Origin: Firmicutes bacterium ADurb.Bin193
Lineage (GTDB): Bacteria > Bacillota > Clostridia > Monoglobales > Firm-18
Direction: 5' to 3'
Assembly: GCA_002070105.1 (NCBI GenBank)
Contig: MWCQ01000006.1
Location: 35,651-99,650, forward strand
Length of the DNA stretch: 64,000 bases
Notes under the pieces: generated by a model
What the model was told of the DNA's origin: nothing
Databases searched by the model: none
What the model saw: only the letters and a program-made list of their open reading frames with translations
Translations under genes and position numbers: made by a program
In this document: positions 4,292-63,563 of the stretch, piece after piece
Layout: each line of letters opens with the position of its first letter
Position numbering within the stretch: the first letter of the stretch is position 1

Positions 4292-5206
4292 TCAATCGGT
4301 TTTAAGTATTCTTAAAAAGTGATTTGCTTCCCTTAATGTATGGTCGCCCAACAATGGTATAATTATTGACTTTATCTTACATTCCAGTATGCCTTCCGTT
4401 CCCTGTCGTTTGAAATTTCTTATTTCTGTGGTGGCTTTAATACTTTTGTCAGTGACATCGGACAACAATTCGGTGTGTCTTTGCGCTTCCAGGGATTCCT
4501 GTGTAAGCATATCAAAAGTATCGCCGAACATATCAGCCGCATTAAACAAATCAACCTCTGTCGGATCTAACAAGCCCCTGATAAATTTTGCGTGCTCCGC
4601 CATAATTCTGTTCCAGAACGCTTCCTGCTCTGCCAAATCCTTTTCCGAGTCAATATCTTCTCTGTTTTGCAGTCTGTTTATCATGTTCAGATAAAATCTT
4701 GCTTCTCTTAAAACATGATCAATGAGGAGCGGATAATTTAAGGTGAATATTTCACATGTCAGCACGCTGTTAAGTATTTTTTCTTTGAATGATATAATGG
4801 ATTTCAGTAAATTAATTGCCTTTTGGTTAATTTGCCTTACTCTTTGGAGTACCATCGGATTTATCATTACTCTGTTTGCTGCCGACAACCCTTGCTCGGC
4901 TTGCGTCAATCCGATATCAAAAGCAATGCCGGTAAAAAACTGGGTTGCTTTTTCTGCTTCAAGTGTATAGTTGGTTACTATCTCTCCCGAAGCGGCTACC
5001 TGCGGGCTTAATAATCCGTTGGCGACGGATATCGTTTCGGCAAGAATTCTGGTTGCTTCAGCTTTCAGCATATCCGCCTGACGGCCTAAATTTTGGTCTT
5101 TCGGCGTGAATGCAACCTGAATAAAGAACATATGCTCTTTCATTATTCTCATGAAAAATAAGTTTAGGTCTATCGAATGTCTTACAAATTCTTCGTTTGA
5201 CAGCAA
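4292..5206 (-). CDS. DUF2935-like helical-bundle protein (two internal repeats)
   Basis: Repeated F..M.EH..F / REA.HFL motifs (MRIMKEHMFFI, NRIMAEHAKFI, HVLREARFYL, HTLREANHFL). Family recalled from Clostridia. Confidence 0.5.
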   Translation of the reverse strand: MLSNEEFVRHSIDLNLFFMRIMKEHMFFIQVAFTPKDQNLGRQADMLKAEATRILAETISVANGLLSPQVAASGEIVTNYTLEAEKATQFFTGIAFDIGLTQAEQGLSAANRVMINPMVLQRVRQINQKAINLLKSIISFKEKILNSVLTCEIFTLNYPLLIDHVLREARFYLNMINRLQNREDIDSEKDLAEQEAFWNRIMAEHAKFIRGLLDPTEVDLFNAADMFGDTFDMLTQESLEAQRHTELLSDVTDKSIKATTEIRNFKRQGTEGILECKIKSIIIPLLGDHTLREANHFLRILKTD

Positions 5207-25968: not shown

Positions 25969-26823
25969 TTAAGTCAATTTTTTTATCGGCTTGTCGCCTG
26001 TAATCAGGGGCGCGCCTGCTTTTTCGGGGCAACAAAGCTCGGTCATGTGTTTCCAGTATCGTTTTGGCATGTGGCTCATGCGGCATTTGGGGTTGTGCCG
26101 TCCCTCTACCTCTATCGTTTTGTAGAAAAGCCGCCAGAGTTCACGGAAAACCGTTTCGGCTTCACAGGCCTCGGGAAGCACAAAATCGGATGCAGGGATT
26201 ATTTCGCACCTGTAGGGCTTGTAGATAAGCGCCGCAGAGTGTGTTTTGTCGTGAATCAAAAATGTTTCCTCGGGATACCTTCCGCAAAAATGCTCCGACA
26301 GCAACGGCAAAACAAAATTTTTCGGCTCTATCTGTGCGGCAAGCGCGCCGCCGTAGTCCGAAAAACGGACAAAGCCCTTTAAGAGATGAACTTCGCGGCT
26401 TAAATGCCTGACAGCCTTAAAAAGCTTGTTCACAACATCATCGGCAAGCATATTCATCACCGAGGCGCCATGGGTAAAGCCCTTTCGCAGAAACAAAAGC
26501 ATATACAGCTCTTTTTTCGGAAGGCAGGTCAAAAAAGCCTCCTTTATGAAGGTCAAAGCCGCCGCACCCATCCTTTTCGGAATGGCTTTTAAGACGCGCT
26601 GTGCCTTTTGGAGGTCTGTGTCAATATTTTTTTCAAAAATGAGAGATGTTTGTGAAAAATCCGATACGATATCCCTTGGAATCTCGTTTTTTTCATAGCT
26701 TTCAAAGACACAGCATAAAAAGCCTTCAAAACTTCCGTCATAGCGATAGATTAAATCGGAAAACCCGCAGTTTCGATACGGGCCGCACAAGCCGTTTGGT
26801 CGGGTATTCCAGCCATCAGGCAT
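25969..26823 (-). CDS. DUF4130/TIGR03915-like putative DNA metabolism protein (partner of the radical SAM protein)
   Basis: YDGSFEGFLCCVFESYE N-terminal motif recalled for the TIGR03915 family. Sits downstream of, and 73 nt overlapping with, the radical SAM gene. Good RBS GAGGAG 8 nt before the ATG at 26823. Confidence 0.7.
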   Translation of the reverse strand: MPDGWNTRPNGLCGPYRNCGFSDLIYRYDGSFEGFLCCVFESYEKNEIPRDIVSDFSQTSLIFEKNIDTDLQKAQRVLKAIPKRMGAAALTFIKEAFLTCLPKKELYMLLFLRKGFTHGASVMNMLADDVVNKLFKAVRHLSREVHLLKGFVRFSDYGGALAAQIEPKNFVLPLLSEHFCGRYPEETFLIHDKTHSAALIYKPYRCEIIPASDFVLPEACEAETVFRELWRLFYKTIEVEGRHNPKCRMSHMPKRYWKHMTELCCPEKAGAPLITGDKPIKKLT

Positions 26824-28106
26824 TTTTTCATCTCCTCTTCGATAAGGTTTTCGCGGTCAAAGACGGAAAGCTGTTCCCACTTAGGCGACAACATTCCAAG
26901 CTCTCTCTCGGACATAAGGGCGCGAAGGATTTCATCCTGGGTTATTTTAACGCCTTCGGCTATTTTACCGCGGCAGGTTATAAAATATTTTGCTCGCTTT
27001 AAGACTATTCCGGTCTTTTTAAGACCGTCAAAGTCCAAAGAGCTTGCACGCCGCGCGGTCATTATTCGCCTTGCGCCTGTTACGCCTATGCCGGGTACGC
27101 GTAAAAGCTCATCATATCCCGCTTTGTTTACCTCTATGGGGAAAAGCTCCAAATGATTAAGCGCCCAGTTGCACTTTGGGTCAACATACGGGTTAAGAGT
27201 CTGATGACTTTGGTCTAAAATTTCGCCCGCAGAAAACCCGTAAAAGCGAATCAGCCAATCCGCCTGATAAAGCCTGTGCTCACGAAAAAGCGGCGGACTT
27301 GTATCGGGCGAGGGAAGCAGACTGTCCTCCGCCACGGGTATATACGCCGAGTAAAACACACGCTTTAATTTGTACTTTTTATAGAGGCTTTCGGTAAGGT
27401 TTAGAATATGATAATCGGTTTCGGGCGTTGCGCCAATAATAATCTGGGTGCTTTGACCCGCAGGAGCGAAGGTCGGTGCATTTTTATACTGTATGATTTC
27501 GGACCTGTTTTCCTCAATGCGGTTTTTCAAATAGCCCATCGGGGCAAGAATTGAGGTTTTGGACTTGTCGGGGGCGAGAAGTTTAAGGCTTTCGAGGGAC
27601 GGAAGCTCAAGATTAACGCTCAATCGGTCGGCAAGCATCCCAAGCCTTGAAACAAGCGCGCTGTCAGTACCGGGGATAACCTTGGCATGAATGTAGCCGG
27701 AAAAGCGGTAGTCCTCACGGAGTATGCGAAGCGTTTCTATCATTCGCTCACAGGTGTAGTCGGGGGTTTTTATAACGCCGGAGCTTAAAAAAAGTCCCTC
27801 TATATAGTTTCGCCGATAAAAGTTTATGGTAAGTTCCGCAAGCTCTCGCGGTGTAAAGGCTGCGCGGGGTACATCGTTTGAACGGCGGTTTACGCAATAT
27901 TTGCAGTCAAACACGCAATAATTGGTCATTAAAACCTTCAAAAGCGAAATGCACCTTCCGTCAGCGGCAAAGCTGTGACATATACCGCAGGCAGAGGCGC
28001 TTCCGATTCCTCCTTTTTGCGCGGTTTTATCGACACCGCTCGATGTGCATGCCACATCGTATTTTGCGCTGTCGGTAAGGATTTTTAGCTTGTCAAATAA
28101 GTCCAT
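26751..28106 (-). CDS. putative DNA modification/repair radical SAM protein (TIGR03916-like) with C-terminal helix-hairpin-helix
   Basis: CxxxCxxC cluster (CVFDCKYCVNR) and C-terminal HhH (LLRVPGIGVTGARRI). Start at M69 of the track ORF, preceded by AAGGCGG and a promoter (see 28126..28175). Confidence 0.8.
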   Translation of the reverse strand: MDLFDKLKILTDSAKYDVACTSSGVDKTAQKGGIGSASACGICHSFAADGRCISLLKVLMTNYCVFDCKYCVNRRSNDVPRAAFTPRELAELTINFYRRNYIEGLFLSSGVIKTPDYTCERMIETLRILREDYRFSGYIHAKVIPGTDSALVSRLGMLADRLSVNLELPSLESLKLLAPDKSKTSILAPMGYLKNRIEENRSEIIQYKNAPTFAPAGQSTQIIIGATPETDYHILNLTESLYKKYKLKRVFYSAYIPVAEDSLLPSPDTSPPLFREHRLYQADWLIRFYGFSAGEILDQSHQTLNPYVDPKCNWALNHLELFPIEVNKAGYDELLRVPGIGVTGARRIMTARRASSLDFDGLKKTGIVLKRAKYFITCRGKIAEGVKITQDEILRALMSERELGMLSPKWEQLSVFDRENLIEEEMKKCLMAGIPDQTACAARIETAGFPI

Positions 28107-28125
28107 AAAACCGCCGCCTTGCAAA

Positions 28126-28175
28126 GAACATCCGTTCATATAAAAATTATACCGCAGAACATATGTTCTTGTAAA
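28126..28175 (-). promoter_or_regulatory. promoter with two LexA (Cheo-type) boxes
   Basis: Minus strand reads TTTACA-AGAACATATGTTCTgcgg-TATAAT-ttttat-GAACGGATGTTC. Box 1 (28156-28169) fills the -35/-10 spacer. Box 2 (28126-28137) lies just downstream of the -10. Both fit GAAC-N4-GTTC. Confidence 0.65.
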
Positions 28176-28253
28176 GAGGGGATTTTTTGGGGGGTATTGA
28201 GAGTTTTGCGATTGTAGGTAAAATCTAAGAGAACATCTTATCGCAGTCCCTAG

Positions 28254-28514
28254 CAAAACGGAATATGCGAAAGATTGGTCGGCATAAGTCGTCACGGGTT
28301 GCTGAATCATATCGTCCCTTTAAATCAAAGGCATTTGGAATGTCTATTAAAGGAATATATCAACTATTACAATACAGTTAGAACTCACCAAGGTATTAAC
28401 TGTCAAACACCCATTATGTCTGATGCTCCTACCAAAACTTCAACAACAAATACTTTTTTGGAATCGAAACCGATTCTTGGAGGCTTGTATCATTCTTATC
28501 AGAAAGTCGCTTAA
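28254..28514 (+). pseudogene. 3' remnant of a DDE (rve/integrase-core) transposase gene
   Basis: The open frame from 28254 reads QNGICERLVGISRHGLLNHIVPLNQRHLECLLKEYINYYNTVRTHQGINCQTP...ILGGLYHSYQKVA. This matches only the C-terminal ~85 aa of IS integrase-core transposases; no N-terminal or catalytic part is present. Confidence 0.7.
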
Positions 28515-28604
28515 AATGGTGTGACGATTCTCAAAATTTGGTCTGTTGTAATTTTCAACAGGCTTAATCAGTATGCAGTGAATCAAAATTTTTGCTTTGT
28601 TTTG

Positions 28605-28647
28605 ACAGTTGCCCGCCGTTTCACCACGACAGGCAACTGCTTTTTTG
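28605..28647 (+). terminator. intrinsic terminator after the transposase remnant
   Basis: acagttgcc...ggcaactg stem followed by cttttttg. Confidence 0.55.
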
Positions 28648-28709
28648 ATTTGAATTTTGGTCTTTTACTCGCAGATGTAATTTTTGCAGGCGACAGGGAA
28701 TTCAATTAG

Positions 28710-30029
28710 TCATTCTGTCGTAATAATCACCTGCTGTTTTGCGTCGTCCCAACCAACCTTTGCGCCCAAGCCTTCGGACACGGCGCGGACAGGGACGAGG
28801 GTACGGCTACTCACAAGCCGCGGCGGTACGTCGAGCGTGACGGTTTTGCCATTTACTGTTATTTGATTATTATCTATTTGCAAAGACATTTCTAAATCGC
28901 CTTTTTTCGCCGTTACCGTTTGCGTTTCACCGTTCCAGCCGACCTCCGCGCCAAAGGCTTCAAAGATAGCGCGGAACGGGACAAGAACACGGTCGTTTTC
29001 CATAATTGGCGGTTGGTCGAAAGCGAGGGTCTGACTGTTTAATATAACGGTGATATTGTCCGATGCATCGCTCTCCTCACCACCTTGCTCTGTGTTATTA
29101 CTGCTTGCGTTAAGGATATACGGGTCATTCTCTGTGCCGGAGCCTGTGATTGTTTCTATAGCTTCAGTGTCAAGGTAGAAAGCGGGGCGAATGCCGCGCT
29201 CGGCTGAAATGGCAGCATAAGCTGGAAAGGTTTCATATTTGTCTTTATCCCAAGCAGCTACCATGGATTCAAATATTGGTGTGCGCAGCAAAAATACTTG
29301 CGGCTCCCCGTCATTTTGCTCATTAGGTTTTGATTCATCTGTACGAACAGCGTTCACATTCCCAAGATTCTCCCACATCCTGTATAGTTGCAGTTCGTCA
29401 AGTAAAAACACCGTATCTTCCAGTTGATATGCCGCGCCGAAAAACACATTCGGAAATTCGGAAATATCCCAAAATATCATGGGCGTTGTTGGACTGTGCC
29501 CGCCTCCTCTGCCGGGGTCTTTAAAACAAATATATCCATCAGACAATCCGTTTTCAGATAATTCTACTTTCCCAGAAGGCGTCATAGTCCATTGATTTAC
29601 CGTTTTCATAAGGTCAAGCTCTGCCTGGGTAAAGTTGCCGCTTGACAAAAAACCGGCTTCGTTACGTCTACCATCCAGATTATTTGGCGTAGGCGTTTCC
29701 CCGACAGGCCATTCGATTTCACCAGCCGGCATTGTTGAGTTCAACCATATTCTGATATACGATGTTTCCCACAAGTTTGAAGACTTATATCCACTTTTAC
29801 TGTTGTCATCAAAGCTCTTATAAGTAATAACCTTGTCGCTCACAATCAACATCCCGTTATCATCGTCCGCCGCATACCTCCACAAAATCGGTGCACCTTT
29901 GTATTGCCCGATTATAAAATAATCGCCGATTGAAAACTGCTCCGAATCAGCAAAGATATTCATACAAAAGGCGGAACTGATTATACAAAAAGTCAAAGTA
30001 ATCGCCAATACTCTTTTTAAACTTAACAT
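28710..30029 (-). CDS. secreted protein: DUF6273-like N-terminal region plus tandem copper-amine-oxidase-N-terminal ('stalk') domains
   Basis: Signal peptide MLSLKRVLAITLTFCIISSAFCMNIFA. GDYFIIGQY...PILWR...SNLWETSYIRIWLNS resembles DUF6273. C-terminal repeats RVLVPFRAIFEAFGAEVGWN / RTLVPVRAVSEGLGAKVGWD. ATG at 30029 follows a GGAG RBS. Confidence 0.7.
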   Translation of the reverse strand: MLSLKRVLAITLTFCIISSAFCMNIFADSEQFSIGDYFIIGQYKGAPILWRYAADDDNGMLIVSDKVITYKSFDDNSKSGYKSSNLWETSYIRIWLNSTMPAGEIEWPVGETPTPNNLDGRRNEAGFLSSGNFTQAELDLMKTVNQWTMTPSGKVELSENGLSDGYICFKDPGRGGGHSPTTPMIFWDISEFPNVFFGAAYQLEDTVFLLDELQLYRMWENLGNVNAVRTDESKPNEQNDGEPQVFLLRTPIFESMVAAWDKDKYETFPAYAAISAERGIRPAFYLDTEAIETITGSGTENDPYILNASSNNTEQGGEESDASDNITVILNSQTLAFDQPPIMENDRVLVPFRAIFEAFGAEVGWNGETQTVTAKKGDLEMSLQIDNNQITVNGKTVTLDVPPRLVSSRTLVPVRAVSEGLGAKVGWDDAKQQVIITTE

Positions 30030-30394: not shown

Positions 30395-31135
30395 TCAAGC
30401 CTTTAGAACAATTCCCCTATTTATACCCGTTAATCTCTCAATTTGCCTTATTGATAATCCATTTTCTTTTAATATTTTTATATATTTATCTCGTTTATAT
30501 AAATCCAGTGCTTGAAATTCGGAAGGATTTTTGCATTTACTTACTTTATAAATCATGCTTTTAGCAATTTCATCATTTATCCGGCGCACTTCTATAATTT
30601 CTAAACATTTATCATTATTTGTTTCATTATGAAATTTTATAAACTCATTAAGTGAAAGCATATTAAATACAAAATCAGTATCAATAATTTTTTTACCATT
30701 TGATTTTATATATTCATTATAACTGCTAAATTCATATTCATCAATAGTTTCTGTTATACTTGCTCTAATTGGATTTTGATGTATGTATCGCAAAACAGTT
30801 AGGAAATATCCGTCATCCTCAACCACTTCACTCTTATACCTATCTTGAAACAGTCCTCCTATTCTATCATATTTCCAGTTATACCAATATACATATTTTG
30901 CTCCGATTTTACGCATAAAATCGCTTAATTTATCACTTTTTACAAGTAAATGAATATGATTTTTCATTAAACAATAGCCATAGATACAGGTGCTCATATC
31001 ATCCTTATATATGGCTATTGTTTCTAAGAAAACATTGCAATCTTCTTCGTCTTCAAAAATGGTTTGGCGGTTTATTCCCCGCAGCATCACATGATATATT
31101 CCGCTTTCGCTTTTTTTCCTTGCCTGCCTAGGCAT
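30395..31135 (-). CDS. IS200/RAYT-like HUH tyrosine (Y1) transposase-family protein with C-terminal HTH domain
   Basis: YHVMLRG, HUH motif NHIHLLV, catalytic-Tyr region RYIHQNPIRA, C-terminal HTH LSIRQIERLTGINRGIVLKA. ATG (M4 of the track ORF) lies 5 nt after GAGGTGA. Confidence 0.8.
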   Translation of the reverse strand: MPRQARKKSESGIYHVMLRGINRQTIFEDEEDCNVFLETIAIYKDDMSTCIYGYCLMKNHIHLLVKSDKLSDFMRKIGAKYVYWYNWKYDRIGGLFQDRYKSEVVEDDGYFLTVLRYIHQNPIRASITETIDEYEFSSYNEYIKSNGKKIIDTDFVFNMLSLNEFIKFHNETNNDKCLEIIEVRRINDEIAKSMIYKVSKCKNPSEFQALDLYKRDKYIKILKENGLSIRQIERLTGINRGIVLKA

Positions 31136-31172
31136 TTCTATCACCTCAAAAGCATTTTATCATATCTTTTCA

Positions 31173-31864: not shown

Positions 31865-32626
31865 TTATATTTTCAATATAATCACTCGGCTAATGCCTGT
31901 TAGTCGCGCCAGTTGCCTTGTAGAAATTCCTTTATCCTTTATTTTCTTTAAATATGAATCTCTTTTCTTTGTGTCGAGTTTTTGAAATTCTGTTGCACTT
32001 GTGCATTTAGAGACTTTCCGTATAATTTCTTTTGCTTCTTCATCCGTTAGTCTATAGCGCCCATCACAAATCTCCATGCACTTATCTTCATTTATTTCGT
32101 TCATATATTTTTTATATCTTTCAACTGCTATACTTTTTTCTCCACTAAAAATTCCAAGAGCAAATTCAGTATTGCATAATTTTTCCTTCTCAATATATTC
32201 ATTATAACTGCTCCACTTATACTTTGCAATATCTTTTTCAATCTTTGCTTTGACAGGATTTTGATGTATGTACCTTAGCACCGTTAAAAAATACTCATTA
32301 TCTTCAACCGCTTCACTTTTGTATCTATCTTGAAATAAATGCCCGCTTCTTTTATATTTCCAGTTATACCAATAAACATAACTGGCTCCTATTCTTCTAA
32401 ATATTAAACCTAAATCCTCTTTTCCCTCTTTTATCAGTAAATGAATATGATTACTCATTAAACAGTAAGCATATATTTCGAACCCACTTTTTTTCTTGTA
32501 TACCTCCAGCGTTTGCAAAAGCTTTGTAAAATCCTCATCATTTTCAAATATGTTTTGTCTGTTTATTCCTCTCAAAACTATATGATAGATTTTCGTGCTA
32601 CTCTTTCCTCTTGCTGTTCTTGGCAT
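31865..32626 (-). CDS. IS200/RAYT-like HUH tyrosine (Y1) transposase-family protein with C-terminal HTH domain (paralog of 30395..31135)
   Basis: YHIVLRG, NHIHLLI, RYIHQNPVKA, C-terminal ISTRQLARLTGISRVIILKI. Roughly half the residues are identical to the first copy by eye. ATG (M4) lies 8 nt after GAGGGGG. Confidence 0.8.
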   Translation of the reverse strand: MPRTARGKSSTKIYHIVLRGINRQNIFENDEDFTKLLQTLEVYKKKSGFEIYAYCLMSNHIHLLIKEGKEDLGLIFRRIGASYVYWYNWKYKRSGHLFQDRYKSEAVEDNEYFLTVLRYIHQNPVKAKIEKDIAKYKWSSYNEYIEKEKLCNTEFALGIFSGEKSIAVERYKKYMNEINEDKCMEICDGRYRLTDEEAKEIIRKVSKCTSATEFQKLDTKKRDSYLKKIKDKGISTRQLARLTGISRVIILKI

Positions 32627-32673
32627 AAAAAACACCCCCTCTGAATTATTCTATCATAAATCGGAGGGGTGTC

Positions 32674-32886: not shown

Positions 32887-34191
32887 TTAAACAAGACCAT
32901 ATCCAGGGTTTTTCACGCCTACCTCCCATGCACCAGGATTAAAATGACTTTCATATTCAATATTCCCAAGCAAACCACAAATAGCTTCCTTAGTCCAACC
33001 TTTTTTAGACAAATAATCATAAATGTATTCAGCGTTTGCTACCTGCTCTTCAGGAGATAATCTGTTATTATCAGTTGATACCTTTGCATAAACCTCACTA
33101 TTACCCCTTCCCTTATCTTCCGAGCTTTCATTCAGCTCAAAAGTAAAGCTATCTGTTCCGTTATTATCAAAGCTGTATGTTTTTCCGCTTACCAGATTCG
33201 CAATATCCCAGATGCTGACATAAGTAGTGTCATTGCGCCAGTCGTTTTTAAATTTAAGCTTCAGTTGACCGATAATTTCTGATTCGTTTTCGGCATTGTA
33301 TACATTAAACGACATTTCATTGTTTTTTGCATTATCAAGCTGAGTAATGTTAGCACGAACCACCATATTAATGCATTTGTCGTGGTTATTGATATAAAAG
33401 ACAATATCTTTTGTGAAATCGTCATACGCTACAACCTCATCTTTGCTTCGTCCGCTTAATGCGCTCAATACCTCACGAAGTGGGAACCAGCCGTACTCTC
33501 CGTACCCTTTGTCCTTTGATAAATGATATGAAATAAAATCCGTAGCGTTTATGTATATAAATAGAATAGAATATTCCTCGTATGAACTGTTATGTATTGC
33601 GGTTTTTTGTTCAGGTGTTAAGCCGTTGTTTATTTGATCTTCCTTCCGGACGCTATTATCAGTCCATTCCACAAGCTGGAACGCTGTTTTGGCGGACGAC
33701 CCGATTACAGCGTCACTGCTCAGGAGACGGACGGCGGAGCTTTTATCGGGCACCCTTGCCTTTATAAGCTCCCTATGGACATAATCCGGAATTTTTGTGT
33801 CGCTGGTTTCATCAGCCTTTTCATTTTTCAGTACTGCCACGGCGTTTCCGTCAGCATCCAAAACGGTTATTAAGCAGTCGCAATTCGGATGAATCGGCGG
33901 CAGGTTGACGCCAATTTCTGCATCGGCAATAGAGAACACCTTTCCGCTTAGTAAGTTACAATCCTCACAGCTTTCTCCTTCTGCGAAATACAAATACCTA
34001 CTGCTACCCTTATCCTGATATTCCCATAATAGCATATATTGGTTAAGCTGTCTACTTTTTGATTCTATAAAGTTTTTTAAAGCACTGATTCTTTTGTCTA
34101 TAAGTGAGCCGATAGAATCTATTACAGATAAGGGGGAATCACCCCGTATAACAGAGTCTTTCAGTTCTTTCAAGACGGTATTTACTGTCAT
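32887..34191 (-). CDS. phage-derived protein: partial MuF/SPP1-gp7 head-morphogenesis motif, unknown central region, truncated tail-lysozyme-like C-terminus (probably decaying)
   Basis: CEDCNLLSGKVF...LPPIHPNCDCLI matches the MuF C-terminal signature. The C-terminus GWTKEAICGLLGNIEYESHFNPGAWE...GYGLV matches the phage tail lysozyme type. The ORF ends at an in-frame TAA where a conserved Q (GYGLVQWT) is expected. Confidence 0.6.
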   Translation of the reverse strand: MTVNTVLKELKDSVIRGDSPLSVIDSIGSLIDKRISALKNFIESKSRQLNQYMLLWEYQDKGSSRYLYFAEGESCEDCNLLSGKVFSIADAEIGVNLPPIHPNCDCLITVLDADGNAVAVLKNEKADETSDTKIPDYVHRELIKARVPDKSSAVRLLSSDAVIGSSAKTAFQLVEWTDNSVRKEDQINNGLTPEQKTAIHNSSYEEYSILFIYINATDFISYHLSKDKGYGEYGWFPLREVLSALSGRSKDEVVAYDDFTKDIVFYINNHDKCINMVVRANITQLDNAKNNEMSFNVYNAENESEIIGQLKLKFKNDWRNDTTYVSIWDIANLVSGKTYSFDNNGTDSFTFELNESSEDKGRGNSEVYAKVSTDNNRLSPEEQVANAEYIYDYLSKKGWTKEAICGLLGNIEYESHFNPGAWEVGVKNPGYGLV

Positions 34192-59628: not shown

Positions 59629-59773
59629 TTTATCAGTCCCTTTGGTTTTTTTCTTTATAGTCATTCTACTATAAGAGGTTCATTATTACAATATTAATTT
59701 GCAATTATAAGCAAATAATTATATAATAACTCAGTATACTTTTATTTCGCAAGCAAAAATGGGAGGAAGGGAA

Positions 59774-60709
59774 ATGTTTGATTCGGGCGTTTTTGCCGCT
59801 TTCGGCGCCGTTTTGACCATCATAATCCTGATTGCGACAGGTTTTTCGCTCAGTAAATTCGGGAAAATTACCCCGGAGATTTCAGGGTTTATCTCATGGA
59901 TTGTCATCAATGTAAGCCTTCCCTGCCTTATGACGGTTACTATTTTAACATCCTTTGACAGAAGTGACCTCGCTTCCATTCCACGCGCCGTTGCGGCCCC
60001 TGCTCTGTCGATAGTTTTAGGGTATTTCGCCGGCTTTGCAGTCGCCAAAATTTCAAAGCCCGCATCGGGAAGATTGGGGCAGACAATCGTTCAGACCGCA
60101 CAAAACAACACAATATTTATGGGACTGCCGGTTAACATCGCAATGCTCGGCGAGGTGAGCGTTCCCTATGTCCTATACTATTACATAGCAAACACCGTGT
60201 TTTTTTGGTCGCTCGGCGTTTATCTAATTTCGGAGAAAAAAAGCAAGAGGGGGAAGAATATACTCAGTATTTTTGTTACGCCGCCTATGTTCGGGATTTA
60301 TATCGGAGCGGTTTGCTTTGTTTTGGGACTTAATCTGCCGAAATTTGCAATGGATTCTTTAAGGTATCTCGGTAACCTTACCACTCCGCTCAGCATGATT
60401 TTTATCGGGCATGTGCTTTGCCGTTCGGGAATTAAAAATTTGAAGATAGATAAGGATGTTGTTGTCGGACTTTTTAGCAGATTTGTAATCGGCCCGTCCA
60501 TTGCGATTTGTATTTATTATTTTATGGGAATAAGCGGTATGATGAGGGATGTATTTATTGTTCAGTCCTTTATGCCCGTCATGGCAAACGCTACAATAGT
60601 GGCAGACAGGTACGGCACGGACAGCCGATACGCCGCTGTTATGGTAAGCCTTTCGACTATTGTTGCCCTTGCTTTGCTTCCGCTTGTAAGGATTTTGTTT
60701 ATAGGGTAG
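59774..60709 (+). CDS. AEC (auxin efflux carrier) family transporter
   Basis: 10-TM protein with duplicated halves. GGAGG RBS before the ATG at 59774. Confidence 0.8.
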   Translation: MFDSGVFAAFGAVLTIIILIATGFSLSKFGKITPEISGFISWIVINVSLPCLMTVTILTSFDRSDLASIPRAVAAPALSIVLGYFAGFAVAKISKPASGRLGQTIVQTAQNNTIFMGLPVNIAMLGEVSVPYVLYYYIANTVFFWSLGVYLISEKKSKRGKNILSIFVTPPMFGIYIGAVCFVLGLNLPKFAMDSLRYLGNLTTPLSMIFIGHVLCRSGIKNLKIDKDVVVGLFSRFVIGPSIAICIYYFMGISGMMRDVFIVQSFMPVMANATIVADRYGTDSRYAAVMVSLSTIVALALLPLVRILFIG

Positions 60710-60789
60710 CGCATGCTCTTTTTTTGCCCTTTATTTATGACATCCTCTGTGTTATATTTGTTATCGTAGCACAAGTGGGGGTGTTCACC

Positions 60790-61005
60790 GTGAGGAAAAA
60801 GGCAGTTGACGAGAAAGAGATTATTCATATTCTTTCCGCTATCGCGCGCGGAAATGTCGGCGACGAGCCCGTTAAGGTCGGCGAACGGCTTAAGGCGGTT
60901 GAACTCTTGGGTAAGAAATATGATATGTTCGGACCTTGTGAGCCGTCCGTGGGCGACATCAGGGTGGTGGTCGATTATGTCGGAAAATGTGAAGGTTCAG
61001 TTTAA
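60790..61005 (+). pseudogene. terminase small subunit, C-terminal fragment only
   Basis: VGERLKAVELLGKKYDMFG matches the conserved C-terminal block of small terminases. No DNA-binding N-terminal part is present. The upstream part of the track ORF lies inside the AEC transporter gene. Confidence 0.5.
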
Positions 61006-62209
61006 CGAGTGCTTCAGGGAGGCAAACCTTTGCACCAAAAGGTACCGCGTTCTTATGGGCGGAGCGGGAAGCGGTAAAAGCGTAAATGTTGCCCAGGATT
61101 TTATATTGAAGCTAATGGATTTAAAATATAAAGGCGCCAACCTTCTTGTTGCGAGGAAGGTTGAGCAGAGTAACAGAAACAGCACATTCGCAGAGCTTTG
61201 TACCGCGATTTCGAGAATTTGCGGTGAAAAAGCGTCGAGTGTATGGGAAATTAAAGAGGGTTTAATGCAGATGCGGTGCCGTATTACGGGGTGCCGTATT
61301 ATTTTTTGCGGTTTTAACGATTCAAGACAAAAGGAAAAGATTAAGTCGCTTAATTTTCCGCACGGTAAGCTTACCTGGATTTGGGTCGAGGAGGCAACCG
61401 AGATTACCGAGAGTGATTTTGATATTTTAGACGACAGGCTTAGGGGGAAGTTTGAAAATCCGGAGCTTTTTTATCAGATTACCCTTACCTTCAACCCGAT
61501 AAGCGGAAGGCATTGGCTTAAAAAAAGATTTTTTGATACGGTTTGCGACGATGTTTATACCCATCGCTCCACATATCTTGACAACGCCTTTATCGATTCA
61601 GGCTATCACAACAGGATGATTAACAGAAAACTCTTTGACCCTGACGGTTACAGAGTTTATGCGCTCGGTGAGTGGGGTATGCAGGAGGGGCTGATTCTGA
61701 CCAACTATGAAGTTTGTGAGTTTGAGCGGGATTTTGACAGTATCGTTTTGGGTCAGGATTTCGGCTTTAACCATGCCAACGCACTTTTGGCGGTCGGATT
61801 TCGGGACGGAAACATTTATGTTTTTGACGAACTTTATGAGTATGGCAAGGACACCGCGGAGCTTATTTCTCTTGCTGAGGGCAGGTTTGACAAAAAGGCT
61901 GTTATGTACTGCGACAGTGCGGAGCCGGACAGGATTAAGACCTGGCGCAGGGCGGGCTTTAACGCCGTCCCCGTCAAAAAAGGCGCCGGAAGTATTTTGG
62001 CACAGATTGATTATTTGAAGAGCAGAAAAATTTTTATAAGACATGTTTGTATTAATCTTATAAGGGAGCTTCAGGCGTGGAGGTGGCATGCCGACAGCAG
62101 CGGCGCACTTACCGACACGCCTTTTGACGGTTTTGACGATGCGATTGCCGCCCTTCGCTATGCTGTCGCGCACAAGATTACAGACGGTGGAATTGAGTTT
62201 TTAAGGTAG
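60977..62209 (+). CDS. phage terminase large subunit (PBSX family)
   Basis: Walker A GGAGSGKS, WVEEATE Walker B-like, and C-terminal nuclease region with DDAIAALRY. Confidence 0.9.
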   Translation: MSENVKVQFNECFREANLCTKRYRVLMGGAGSGKSVNVAQDFILKLMDLKYKGANLLVARKVEQSNRNSTFAELCTAISRICGEKASSVWEIKEGLMQMRCRITGCRIIFCGFNDSRQKEKIKSLNFPHGKLTWIWVEEATEITESDFDILDDRLRGKFENPELFYQITLTFNPISGRHWLKKRFFDTVCDDVYTHRSTYLDNAFIDSGYHNRMINRKLFDPDGYRVYALGEWGMQEGLILTNYEVCEFERDFDSIVLGQDFGFNHANALLAVGFRDGNIYVFDELYEYGKDTAELISLAEGRFDKKAVMYCDSAEPDRIKTWRRAGFNAVPVKKGAGSILAQIDYLKSRKIFIRHVCINLIRELQAWRWHADSSGALTDTPFDGFDDAIAALRYAVAHKITDGGIEFLR

Positions 62210-62228
62210 CTGTAAAGGAGGTTAAAAG

Positions 62229-63563
62229 ATGGTTGGTGAAACGGACATTCTAAAAGGTATGTTTCGTGCAAAGGGGATTAGCGACGAGAAAATTCTCGTG
62301 GATTTAATCGACTCGCACAACAACGCCCATATGCTTGAAGGAATCAGATATTACAACAATGAGGGCGACATTTTAAGGCGCCGGCTTTTCAGGTATGAGG
62401 CAGGGAAGAGGGTTTTGGATACCGAAAAGCCCAACCGCAGGCTTGCGCACAACTGGCATAAGCTGTTGGTTGACCAGAAAACAGCTTATCTCACCGGAAA
62501 CCCCGTACGCTTTAACGCCGAAAACCCGGAGGCGACAAGGCTTATTAACAGGTTTTTGGGTGAACGGTTTGATGACACTCTCTGTGAGCTTGCAAAAGGC
62601 TCCGCAAACAAGGGTGTGGAGTGGCTTCAGCTTTTTATAGATGAGGAAGGTAAGTTTGGATTTTGTGTTATTCCGGCACAACAGGTTATTCCCATTTGGG
62701 ATACCTCGCTTTTGAAAAAGCTCGTCGGCGTTGTGAGATATTATCCGCTTTCAACCGAAGCGGGGGAGAATGAGCTTGTTATCGAATGGTGGAATGACAA
62801 CACCGTCAAGTATTTTTCAAGGCGTGGGGGCGGAAGAATAAGGTTTATCAGGGAAGCTCCGCATTTCTACCGAAGTGGCGTGGGGTACGGCTGGGGCAGG
62901 GTTCCGTTTGTCGCCTTCAAAAACAATGAGGAGATGCTTAGCGATTTAAAATTTTATAAGCAGCTTATCGATGATTATGATATAAATATGTCCGACTTTT
63001 CCAACAATCTTTCAGAGATTCAGGAAGTTGTCACTGTCTTAAAGGGATATGAGGGCACCGACCTTCGTGAGTTTTCCGAAAACCTTAGGTATTATAAGGT
63101 TATAAAGGTCGGGAGCGGTGACGGAAGCGGGGTTGAAAAACTTGAGCTTTCCATTCCCGTTGAAGCTAAAAGAGAGCTTTTGAATCGACTTGAGGAAAAT
63201 ATTTTTCTTTTCGGTCAGGGCGTGAATGTTAAAACAGACAGATTCGGCGCAAGCCCCAGCGGCATTGCGCTTAAATTTTTGTATTCGCTGCTCGACATGA
63301 AGGCGGGGATTACCGAGAGGAAGTTTGTTGTTGCGGTTAAGGAGGTTTTGTGGTTTTTGTTTGAGTATGCCGCAATTTCAAAGGATGTAAGATACGACCC
63401 CGATACCGTTGCCGTTGTGTTTGACAAGAGAATGGTTTTAAACGAGCTTGAAATGGCGCAGATTGCCTTGCACAGCAAGGGGATTATTTCGGACAGAACC
63501 ATCATATCGCATCACCCGTGGACGGAGGATGTGGATGATGAGATTAAAAATACAGCCCTTTAG
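62229..63563 (+). CDS. phage portal protein (SPP1 Gp6-like)
   Basis: Size, position after terL, and motifs (HNWHKLLVDQKTAYLTGNPV...). Confidence 0.85.
   Translation: MVGETDILKGMFRAKGISDEKILVDLIDSHNNAHMLEGIRYYNNEGDILRRRLFRYEAGKRVLDTEKPNRRLAHNWHKLLVDQKTAYLTGNPVRFNAENPEATRLINRFLGERFDDTLCELAKGSANKGVEWLQLFIDEEGKFGFCVIPAQQVIPIWDTSLLKKLVGVVRYYPLSTEAGENELVIEWWNDNTVKYFSRRGGGRIRFIREAPHFYRSGVGYGWGRVPFVAFKNNEEMLSDLKFYKQLIDDYDINMSDFSNNLSEIQEVVTVLKGYEGTDLREFSENLRYYKVIKVGSGDGSGVEKLELSIPVEAKRELLNRLEENIFLFGQGVNVKTDRFGASPSGIALKFLYSLLDMKAGITERKFVVAVKEVLWFLFEYAAISKDVRYDPDTVAVVFDKRMVLNELEMAQIALHSKGIISDRTIISHHPWTEDVDDEIKNTAL

Follow-up and report, generated by a model that had tools for sequence, protein, structure and literature searches.

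Two palindromes that resemble LexA operators lie in the promoter of an uncharacterised radical SAM gene of Firmicutes bacterium ADurb.Bin193, which raises the question whether this gene and its DUF4130 partner belong to the SOS regulon and whether both palindromes contribute to their control. We analysed a sequence of 64,000 nt from this uncultured anaerobic-digester Firmicute (contig MWCQ01000006.1, positions 35,651-99,650). This whole stretch is referred to here as the window, and all positions are given within it. The LexA operator of Firmicutes is the inverted repeat GAAC-N4-GTTC, and its extended consensus in Bacillus subtilis is CGAACRNRYGTTYC. In B. subtilis SOS promoters, for example those of lexA/dinR and dinC, such sites (Cheo boxes) overlap the sigma-A promoter elements, and multiple boxes are present at strongly repressed genes. 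These multi-operator promoters show the same overlap of box and promoter as the window, with other genes downstream; to our knowledge, B. subtilis lacks the radical SAM/DUF4130 pair.

SOS control of the radical SAM/DUF4130 pair is already described in the literature. The Clostridium acetobutylicum orthologs CAC3343-CAC3344 were placed in the LexA regulon by footprinting and expression clustering (Wang et al. 2013, PMC3828012), and they are co-expressed with lexA, recA, and uvrB. That report describes no promoter architecture or double operator; the ADurb.Bin193 locus differs from CAC3343-CAC3344 in its two perfect boxes and its lengthened gene overlap. LexA control of TIGR03916/TIGR03915, the families to which the pair belongs, was predicted in Verrucomicrobia by Erill and co-workers (PMC4951493) and in Bacteroidetes, with Alphaproteobacteria cited likewise (PMC8565304). 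The operon of these three groups (COG4277-COG1573) is an orthologous pair that comparative genomics assigned to the SOS regulon (PMC4951493, PMC8565304), so SOS control of the pair recurs across phyla. The LexA motifs are different in those groups and their TIGR03915 protein is fused to a uracil-DNA glycosylase, unlike the 284-aa protein of the window. In Moraxellaceae, loss of ddaA, which encodes an activator and thus a regulator other than LexA, lowers the basal transcription of radical SAM and TIGR03915-family genes more than two-fold, and these genes were listed there as part of the DNA damage response (PMC12392091). Furthermore, a link between DUF4130 and SOS-associated systems was drawn by Aravind and colleagues in 2013 (PMC3765255), and about 20% of bacterial genomes carry enzymes of the TIGR03916/TIGR03915 type (PMC4951493). 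In a 2026 preprint, an ortholog pair from Lachnospiraceae was predicted with confidence to form a heterodimer, and its reaction was called unknown (bioRxiv 10.64898/2026.08.19.745780). The SplB-like radical SAM 'photolyase' (COG1533) is likewise a recurrent SOS regulon member (PMC4951493, PMC7739468). SplB-like proteins are LexA-controlled, and their presumed action on DNA lesions requires neither oxygen nor light; they constitute another radical SAM family, without a DUF4130 partner, while the protein of the window is TIGR03916.

Two predicted LexA boxes overlap the promoter of the radical SAM gene

The radical SAM gene is encoded on the minus strand and begins at the ATG at 28106. We found that the sequence TTTACA-18 nt-TATAAT (28175-28146) upstream of this ATG is the best sigma-70-like site between 25.7 and 28.8 kb in a consensus scan, with 11 of 12 positions matched. 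On the minus strand, the promoter reads, in order, cctc-TTTACA, AGAACATATGTTCT, GCGG, TATAAT, TTTTATAT, GAACGGATGTTC, TTTGC-AAGGCGGCGG-TTTT, and the ATG. The -35 hexamer TTTACA (28170-28175) stands in a 'ctctttaca' context that is kept in the closest orthologs, and the -10 hexamer TATAAT (28146-28151) is conserved in orthologs. The site is therefore a consensus prediction of a sigma-A promoter that is supported by conservation. By standard sigma-A geometry, transcription would be expected to start at the A residues 5-7 nt past the -10 hexamer (28139-28141, minus strand). A Shine-Dalgarno-like, purine-rich stretch, AAGGCGGCGG (28111-28120, minus strand), precedes the ATG. An Rfam scan of 27900-28800 returned nothing but a chance sub-threshold snoRNA match.

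Predicted LexA box 1, AGAACATATGTTCT (28156-28169), is a perfect 14-nt palindrome within the spacer between the hexamers. It starts 1 nt past the -35 hexamer and ends 4 nt (GCGG) ahead of the -10 hexamer. Predicted LexA box 2, GAACGGATGTTC (28126-28137), lies 8 nt past the -10 hexamer, where it would cover positions +1 to +14 of the expected transcript. The boxes are 31 bp apart from centre to centre, or approximately three helical turns, and both overlap or abut core promoter elements. Both boxes have exact GAAC/GTTC arms and an RNRY centre (box 1, aGAACATATGTTCt; box 2, tGAACGGATGTTCt). Neither has the flanking C/G of the B. subtilis consensus, and the same is true of most orthologous sites. 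A first-pass annotation of this DNA had reported two boxes of the GAAC-N4-GTTC type, one in the spacer and one just downstream of the -10 hexamer. When re-read on the minus strand, its coordinates and sequences proved exact, the consensus scan placed the boxes relative to the hexamers as it had stated, and both sites fit the consensus that it had named.

We found that GAAC-N4-GTTC occurs twice in the 64-kb window, where 0.69 sites are expected, and that both sites are in the radical SAM promoter. By an analytic estimate, the probability of two such sites less than 50 bp apart anywhere in the window is ~4e-4; at least two matches somewhere in the sequence were present in 14 of 100 shuffles of the window. 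We also scored the window with a matrix (PSSM) built from orthologous sites. Box 1 received 24.4 bits, the top score of the window, and box 2 received 15.7 bits, while the next match of intergenic quality scored 8.5 bits. A third strong box, AAGAACATATGCTCTT (5124-5139), scored 18.2 bits. It lies approximately 70 nt within a DUF2935 gene (4292-5206, minus strand), encodes KEHMFF, and has no promoter nearby; we judged it to be the product of chance or coding constraint.

Boxes occupy two fixed promoter slots in orthologous loci

The ortholog set consists of 80 loci from a genome scan, with 63-77% protein identity, which span Oscillospiraceae/Ruminococcaceae, Clostridium, Eubacterium, Desulfitobacterium, Negativicutes, and one member of Paenibacillaceae. 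Culturable species are represented by, for example, Caproicibacter fermentans (L024), Eubacterium callanderi (L062), and Faecalibacterium prausnitzii (L043), the last of which has two boxes. Boxes were searched from -130 to -12 relative to the start codon, and expectations were taken from the rest of the loci. Over this span, an exact GAAC-N4-GTTC is present in 47 of the 80 loci (0.19 expected), and 72 loci have a box if one mismatch is allowed (3.15 expected). At least two boxes were found in 23 loci. The boxes are not scattered; they stand at two fixed promoter slots, with 31 loci using the spacer only, 17 the position just past the -10 hexamer only, and 16 both. Of the 50 orthologs with a spacer box, 36 have it beginning 1 nt past the -35 hexamer, and the post -10 box begins 6-7 nt past the hexamer in 30 of 39 cases, this second slot being occupied in 37 orthologous loci. 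The spacing of the promoter itself differs with the presence of a spacer box, as an 18-nt spacer is found in 37 of 50 promoters with such a box versus 4 of 26 without. Since the sequence outside the promoter is unconserved, the box signal is not simply a matter of shared ancestry.

The closest relatives (L001, L002, and L005) have 'ctctttacaaGAACATATGTTCt' in common, which is the identical context of box 1. Their leaders are shorter by 16 nt and lack box 2, which indicates that box 2 is a gain in the ADurb.Bin193 lineage, in a slot that other lineages also use. Box 2 is less typical in its GGAT centre and in its distance from the -10 hexamer, which is 8 nt rather than the usual 6-7 nt. The centre-to-centre distance is 29 bp in most two-box orthologs compared to 31 bp in the window; helical phasing is thus not conserved, and conservation lends no support to cooperative binding. 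None of the 80 orthologs has two perfect boxes.

At two Faecalispora-like loci, the boxed promoter is distant from the gene. One (L050:3201) has it approximately 800 nt upstream of the radical SAM start, with no convincing open reading frame between them, and the other (L053) has a box at -152 and a leader of approximately 130 nt before the radical SAM start. These distant boxed promoters suggest an inserted element or a long leader.

The two-box geometry retrieves an SOS regulon from metagenomes

As an external control, we scanned metagenome contigs for box-N5-TATAAT-N6-9-box, irrespective of the gene downstream, and obtained 81 loci; the gene counts that follow are restricted to loci with a readable downstream gene. 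ImuB-like Y-family proteins with IMS_C and thumb domains only follow the two boxes at 24 loci, and full Y-family polymerases follow them at 5. LexA itself (Peptidase_S24 and LexA_DNA_bind) is the downstream gene at 2 loci. One locus encodes a 122-aa LysM protein that may resemble YneA, the inhibitor of division in the SOS response, and 14 loci on human-gut contigs contribute additional TIGR03916 genes. Another 16 loci encode an uncharacterised Cys-rich family, as counted by its N-terminal signature, and a few more look related; assorted other genes account for a few loci. An unbiased search for the geometry alone therefore retrieves the SOS regulon, including its repressor. The first-pass attribution of the boxes to LexA gains strong support from this result and from the 72 of 80 orthologous promoters that are boxed at the two slots.

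No lexA gene was found in the 64-kb window or in the 80 loci by tblastn with B. subtilis LexA, of approximate sequence, as the query, and a Pfam/NCBIfam survey found no canonical SOS genes in the window. The presence of LexA in the ADurb.Bin193 genome is assumed from taxonomy.

The radical SAM protein belongs to TIGR03916

The radical SAM gene (26751-28106, minus strand) encodes a protein of 451 aa that matches TIGR03916 with 662 bits (cutoff, 343.5), the sole radical SAM family matched. The protein is 100% identical to the deposited BWY15_01043 of Firmicutes bacterium ADurb.Bin193. An open reading frame start at 28310, which would give 519 aa, was rejected since the homologs and the deposited protein begin with MDLFDKL at the ATG at 28106. 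Among 30 homologs, the cysteines of the CX3CX2C motif (C64, C68, and C71) are invariant. N-terminal C20, C43, H44, and C52 are also invariant, and C40 is usual. This suggests that the Cys and His residues between positions 20 and 52 may form a second metal or iron-sulfur site.

The first-pass annotation had described a radical SAM protein with a helix-hairpin-helix tail and a partner of the DUF4130 type. Both gene identities hold, with TIGR03916 at 662 bits and TIGR03915/DUF4130 at 238 bits. For the tail, there is a weak HHH_3 match (E = 7e-4, below the Pfam cutoff), and it covers residues 324-353 rather than the extreme tail. Many close homologs have a precomputed PF12836 match, and a 57%-identical relative passes the helix-hairpin-helix cutoff. 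An AlphaFold2 model of the radical SAM protein, made from a low-diversity alignment of 30 sequences, has a mean pLDDT of 58.7; it is confident in the helix-hairpin-helix region only and unreliable at residues 20-52. A PDB sequence search with the radical SAM and DUF4130 proteins found no relative of either.

A lineage-specific insertion lengthens a conserved gene overlap

The DUF4130/TIGR03915 gene (25969-26823, minus strand) encodes 284 aa, begins with MPDG, and scores 238 bits against a cutoff of 112 (PF13566, 2e-48). The protein matches DUF4130 only. It has no uracil-DNA glycosylase fusion and represents the unfused form, which still allows family membership. A Shine-Dalgarno sequence, GAGGAG (26832-26837, minus strand), lies within the 3' end of the radical SAM gene and is separated by 8 nt from the ATG at 26823. 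In the orthologs, GGAGGA stands approximately 8 nt 5' of a conserved DUF4130 ATG, and the consensus of the protein start is MPD[GR]..[VLI][IV]Y.YDGSF. The true DUF4130 start is thus the upstream ATG, with the conserved MPDG and a Shine-Dalgarno sequence of the GGAGGA type.

From this start, the two genes of the window overlap by 73 nt (26751-26823). The overlap had been reported in the first-pass annotation, and the conserved MPDG start and the DNA alignment agree with it. We rejected the possibility that it is an artefact of ORF calling that masks a 4-nt NTGA overlap, as the codon there is TTA. Among the 73 orthologs in which the overlap could be resolved, 57 have 22 nt and none has 73 nt. 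DNA alignment revealed a lineage-specific insertion of 51 nt (26754-26804, minus strand, with a placement accurate to a few nt), and the 73-nt overlap is accounted for by the conserved 22-nt overlap plus this insertion. The insertion is open in both frames, and it makes the radical SAM protein longer by 17 residues at its C-terminus and the DUF4130 protein by 17 residues at its N-terminus. Overlap and internal Shine-Dalgarno sequence together imply a predicted translational coupling of DUF4130 to the radical SAM gene. Two of the orthologs (L066 and L078) have a gene overlap of 58 nt.

We questioned how far the conserved unit extends. In all 80 orthologous loci, the DUF4130 gene is directly 3' of the radical SAM gene and has the same orientation. 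We rejected a larger operon that extends into the HAD phosphatase and HprK genes further downstream, as the HAD gene is present in none of the 80 loci and the HprK gene in one. Given the constant adjacency of DUF4130 and the lack of conservation of the flanking genes, the functional and conserved unit consists of the promoter and two genes. We detected no terminator-like site past the end of the DUF4130 gene, whose stop is overlapped by a promoter-like TTGACT-17-TATACT (25977-25949). Some read-through into the HAD phosphatase gene is possible.

Alternative explanations for the two palindromes

Since the motif fixes 8 bases only, and at least two matches arose in 14 of 100 window shuffles, both palindromes could be chance matches in AT-rich promoter DNA with no regulatory role. 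We consider the probability of this to be negligible. Both matches fall within 43 bp of one another in the best promoter of the region (P ~4e-4), and 72 of 80 orthologs, compared to 3.15 expected, have boxes at the fixed slots. The ortholog footprint effectively refutes the chance reading, and it is unlikely to be a shared-ancestry artefact because the flanking sequence is not conserved. The palindromes might instead be bound by a regulator other than LexA, for instance a dedicated helix-turn-helix or phage-type repressor, and the lack of a LexA gene in the 64-kb window is compatible with this. Such a regulator is very unlikely, however, given that the motif is the experimentally established LexA box of Firmicutes, that the unconserved neighbours leave the operon with no accompanying regulator gene, and that the same two-box geometry is found upstream of lexA and Y-family polymerases in metagenomes. 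Published footprinting also assigns the C. acetobutylicum ortholog to LexA (PMC3828012).

It is also conceivable that only box 1 works as a LexA operator and that box 2 is recent, weak, or neutral and adds little repression. Box 2 sits in the lineage-specific 16-nt leader extension, and the three closest relatives keep box 1 without it. Its matrix score is the lower of the two (15.7 versus 24.4 bits) and it lies 1-2 nt beyond the modal distance from the -10 hexamer. Nevertheless, box 2 matches GAAC-N4-GTTC exactly and has an RNRY centre, the chance of such a site within 50 bp of box 1 is ~1e-3, and the post -10 slot that it occupies is common to 37 orthologous loci. Perfect two-box versions also precede TIGR03916 genes in another lineage, as observed at the metagenome loci. 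We regard a box 2 that adds little as rather improbable, though a real possibility. The first-pass annotation had taken the double operator as an argument for tight SOS control, which is a reasonable inference for ADurb.Bin193, while its closest relatives carry the spacer box only.

A model for LexA control of the operon

Our preferred reading is that this promoter, with its built-in LexA operators, very probably places the radical SAM/DUF4130 operon in the SOS regulon. In an undamaged cell, a LexA dimer on box 1 would fill the spacer between the -35 and -10 hexamers and block the binding of RNA polymerase. A second LexA dimer on box 2 would cover the start site and early leader and block open-complex formation or promoter escape. 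Upon DNA damage, RecA filaments would promote the self-cleavage of LexA and both sites would be cleared. The derepressed promoter would then give an mRNA with a short leader of approximately 35 nt. Coupled translation of DUF4130, from the Shine-Dalgarno sequence and ATG inside the end of the radical SAM gene, would favour equimolar amounts of the partners of the predicted complex. LexA occupancy, the transcription start, two-site cooperativity, and damage induction are what we infer for this promoter, together with the role of the enzyme, for which an oxygen-independent radical reaction with damaged or single-stranded DNA is most likely.

The regulatory logic of this model is ordinary SOS control, which was proposed earlier for the pair, and the added value of our data is in scale and detail. 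New here are the fixed two-slot promoter architecture across Firmicutes and the conserved 22-nt coupling overlap, as well as the perfect double operator and the 51-nt dual-frame insertion of the ADurb.Bin193 lineage. The footprint across 80 Firmicutes loci and the constant coupling strengthen the case that the TIGR03916/DUF4130 complex, which is widespread and without a solved structure or known reaction, acts on damaged DNA. More speculatively, the pair might belong to the core SOS regulon of nearly all anaerobic Firmicutes, conserved like lexA or the translesion polymerases and equipped with a two-slot LexA promoter module; we offer this as a possibility that falls short of being probable. 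If it is true, a perfect double operator would signal a product that is harmful when made without damage, for example a radical enzyme that works without oxygen on single-stranded DNA, where it would cut, modify, or directly reverse a lesion. The promoter-gene unit would then also provide a clean entry point to a widespread and unsolved DNA-damage enzyme.

Mobile elements in the neighbourhood of the operon

Upstream of the promoter, at 28210-28514 on the plus strand, we observed the remains of an rve-type (IS481/IS3-like) transposase, a C-terminal fragment that has decayed and is interrupted by an in-frame TAG (…SYRSP*QNGICERLVG…YYNTVRTHQGI…). The missing 5' part of this transposase would enter the radical SAM promoter, which indicates that the DNA upstream of the -35 hexamer was rearranged by an insertion sequence. 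The promoter and its boxes are intact despite the adjoining rearrangement. The fragment had no match in plasmids by blastn. A few kb further upstream of the operon is a patch rich in mobile elements (30395-31144, 31865-32635, and 32887-34191, all on the minus strand), which contains two unusually long (249 and 256 aa) IS200-like Y1 transposase open reading frames and a Mu-F-like/phage-lysozyme open reading frame. At the end of the window, a phage terminase large subunit gene and an SPP1-type portal gene (59759-63563, plus strand) are probably the edge of a prophage, and no LexA-like box was found at this prophage-like end.

Gene families downstream of perfect double operators

Two protein families stood out among the metagenome loci. 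The ImuB-like family, the commonest gene downstream of a perfect double operator in metagenomes (24 loci, including L081, L084, L086, L090, L095, and L097), has approximately 370 aa and starts with MIVYCGLRHFYI. Its members contain the little-finger and thumb domains and no catalytic IMS domain. The Cys-rich family has approximately 220 aa, an N-terminal signature of M.LKPCPYR..D.EGHILCDKIK.GDREVSPNICRACP, and no Pfam match. It is downstream of a perfect double operator in at least 16 metagenome contigs (L093, L096, L106, L115, L126, L136, L138, L146, L149, L158, and others). At one of these loci (L138:4978-5673, minus strand), the Cys-rich gene is directly 3' of lexA and 5' of a gene that looks FtsK-like. 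We propose the Cys-rich family as a candidate addition to the SOS regulon, with a possible role in division or segregation.
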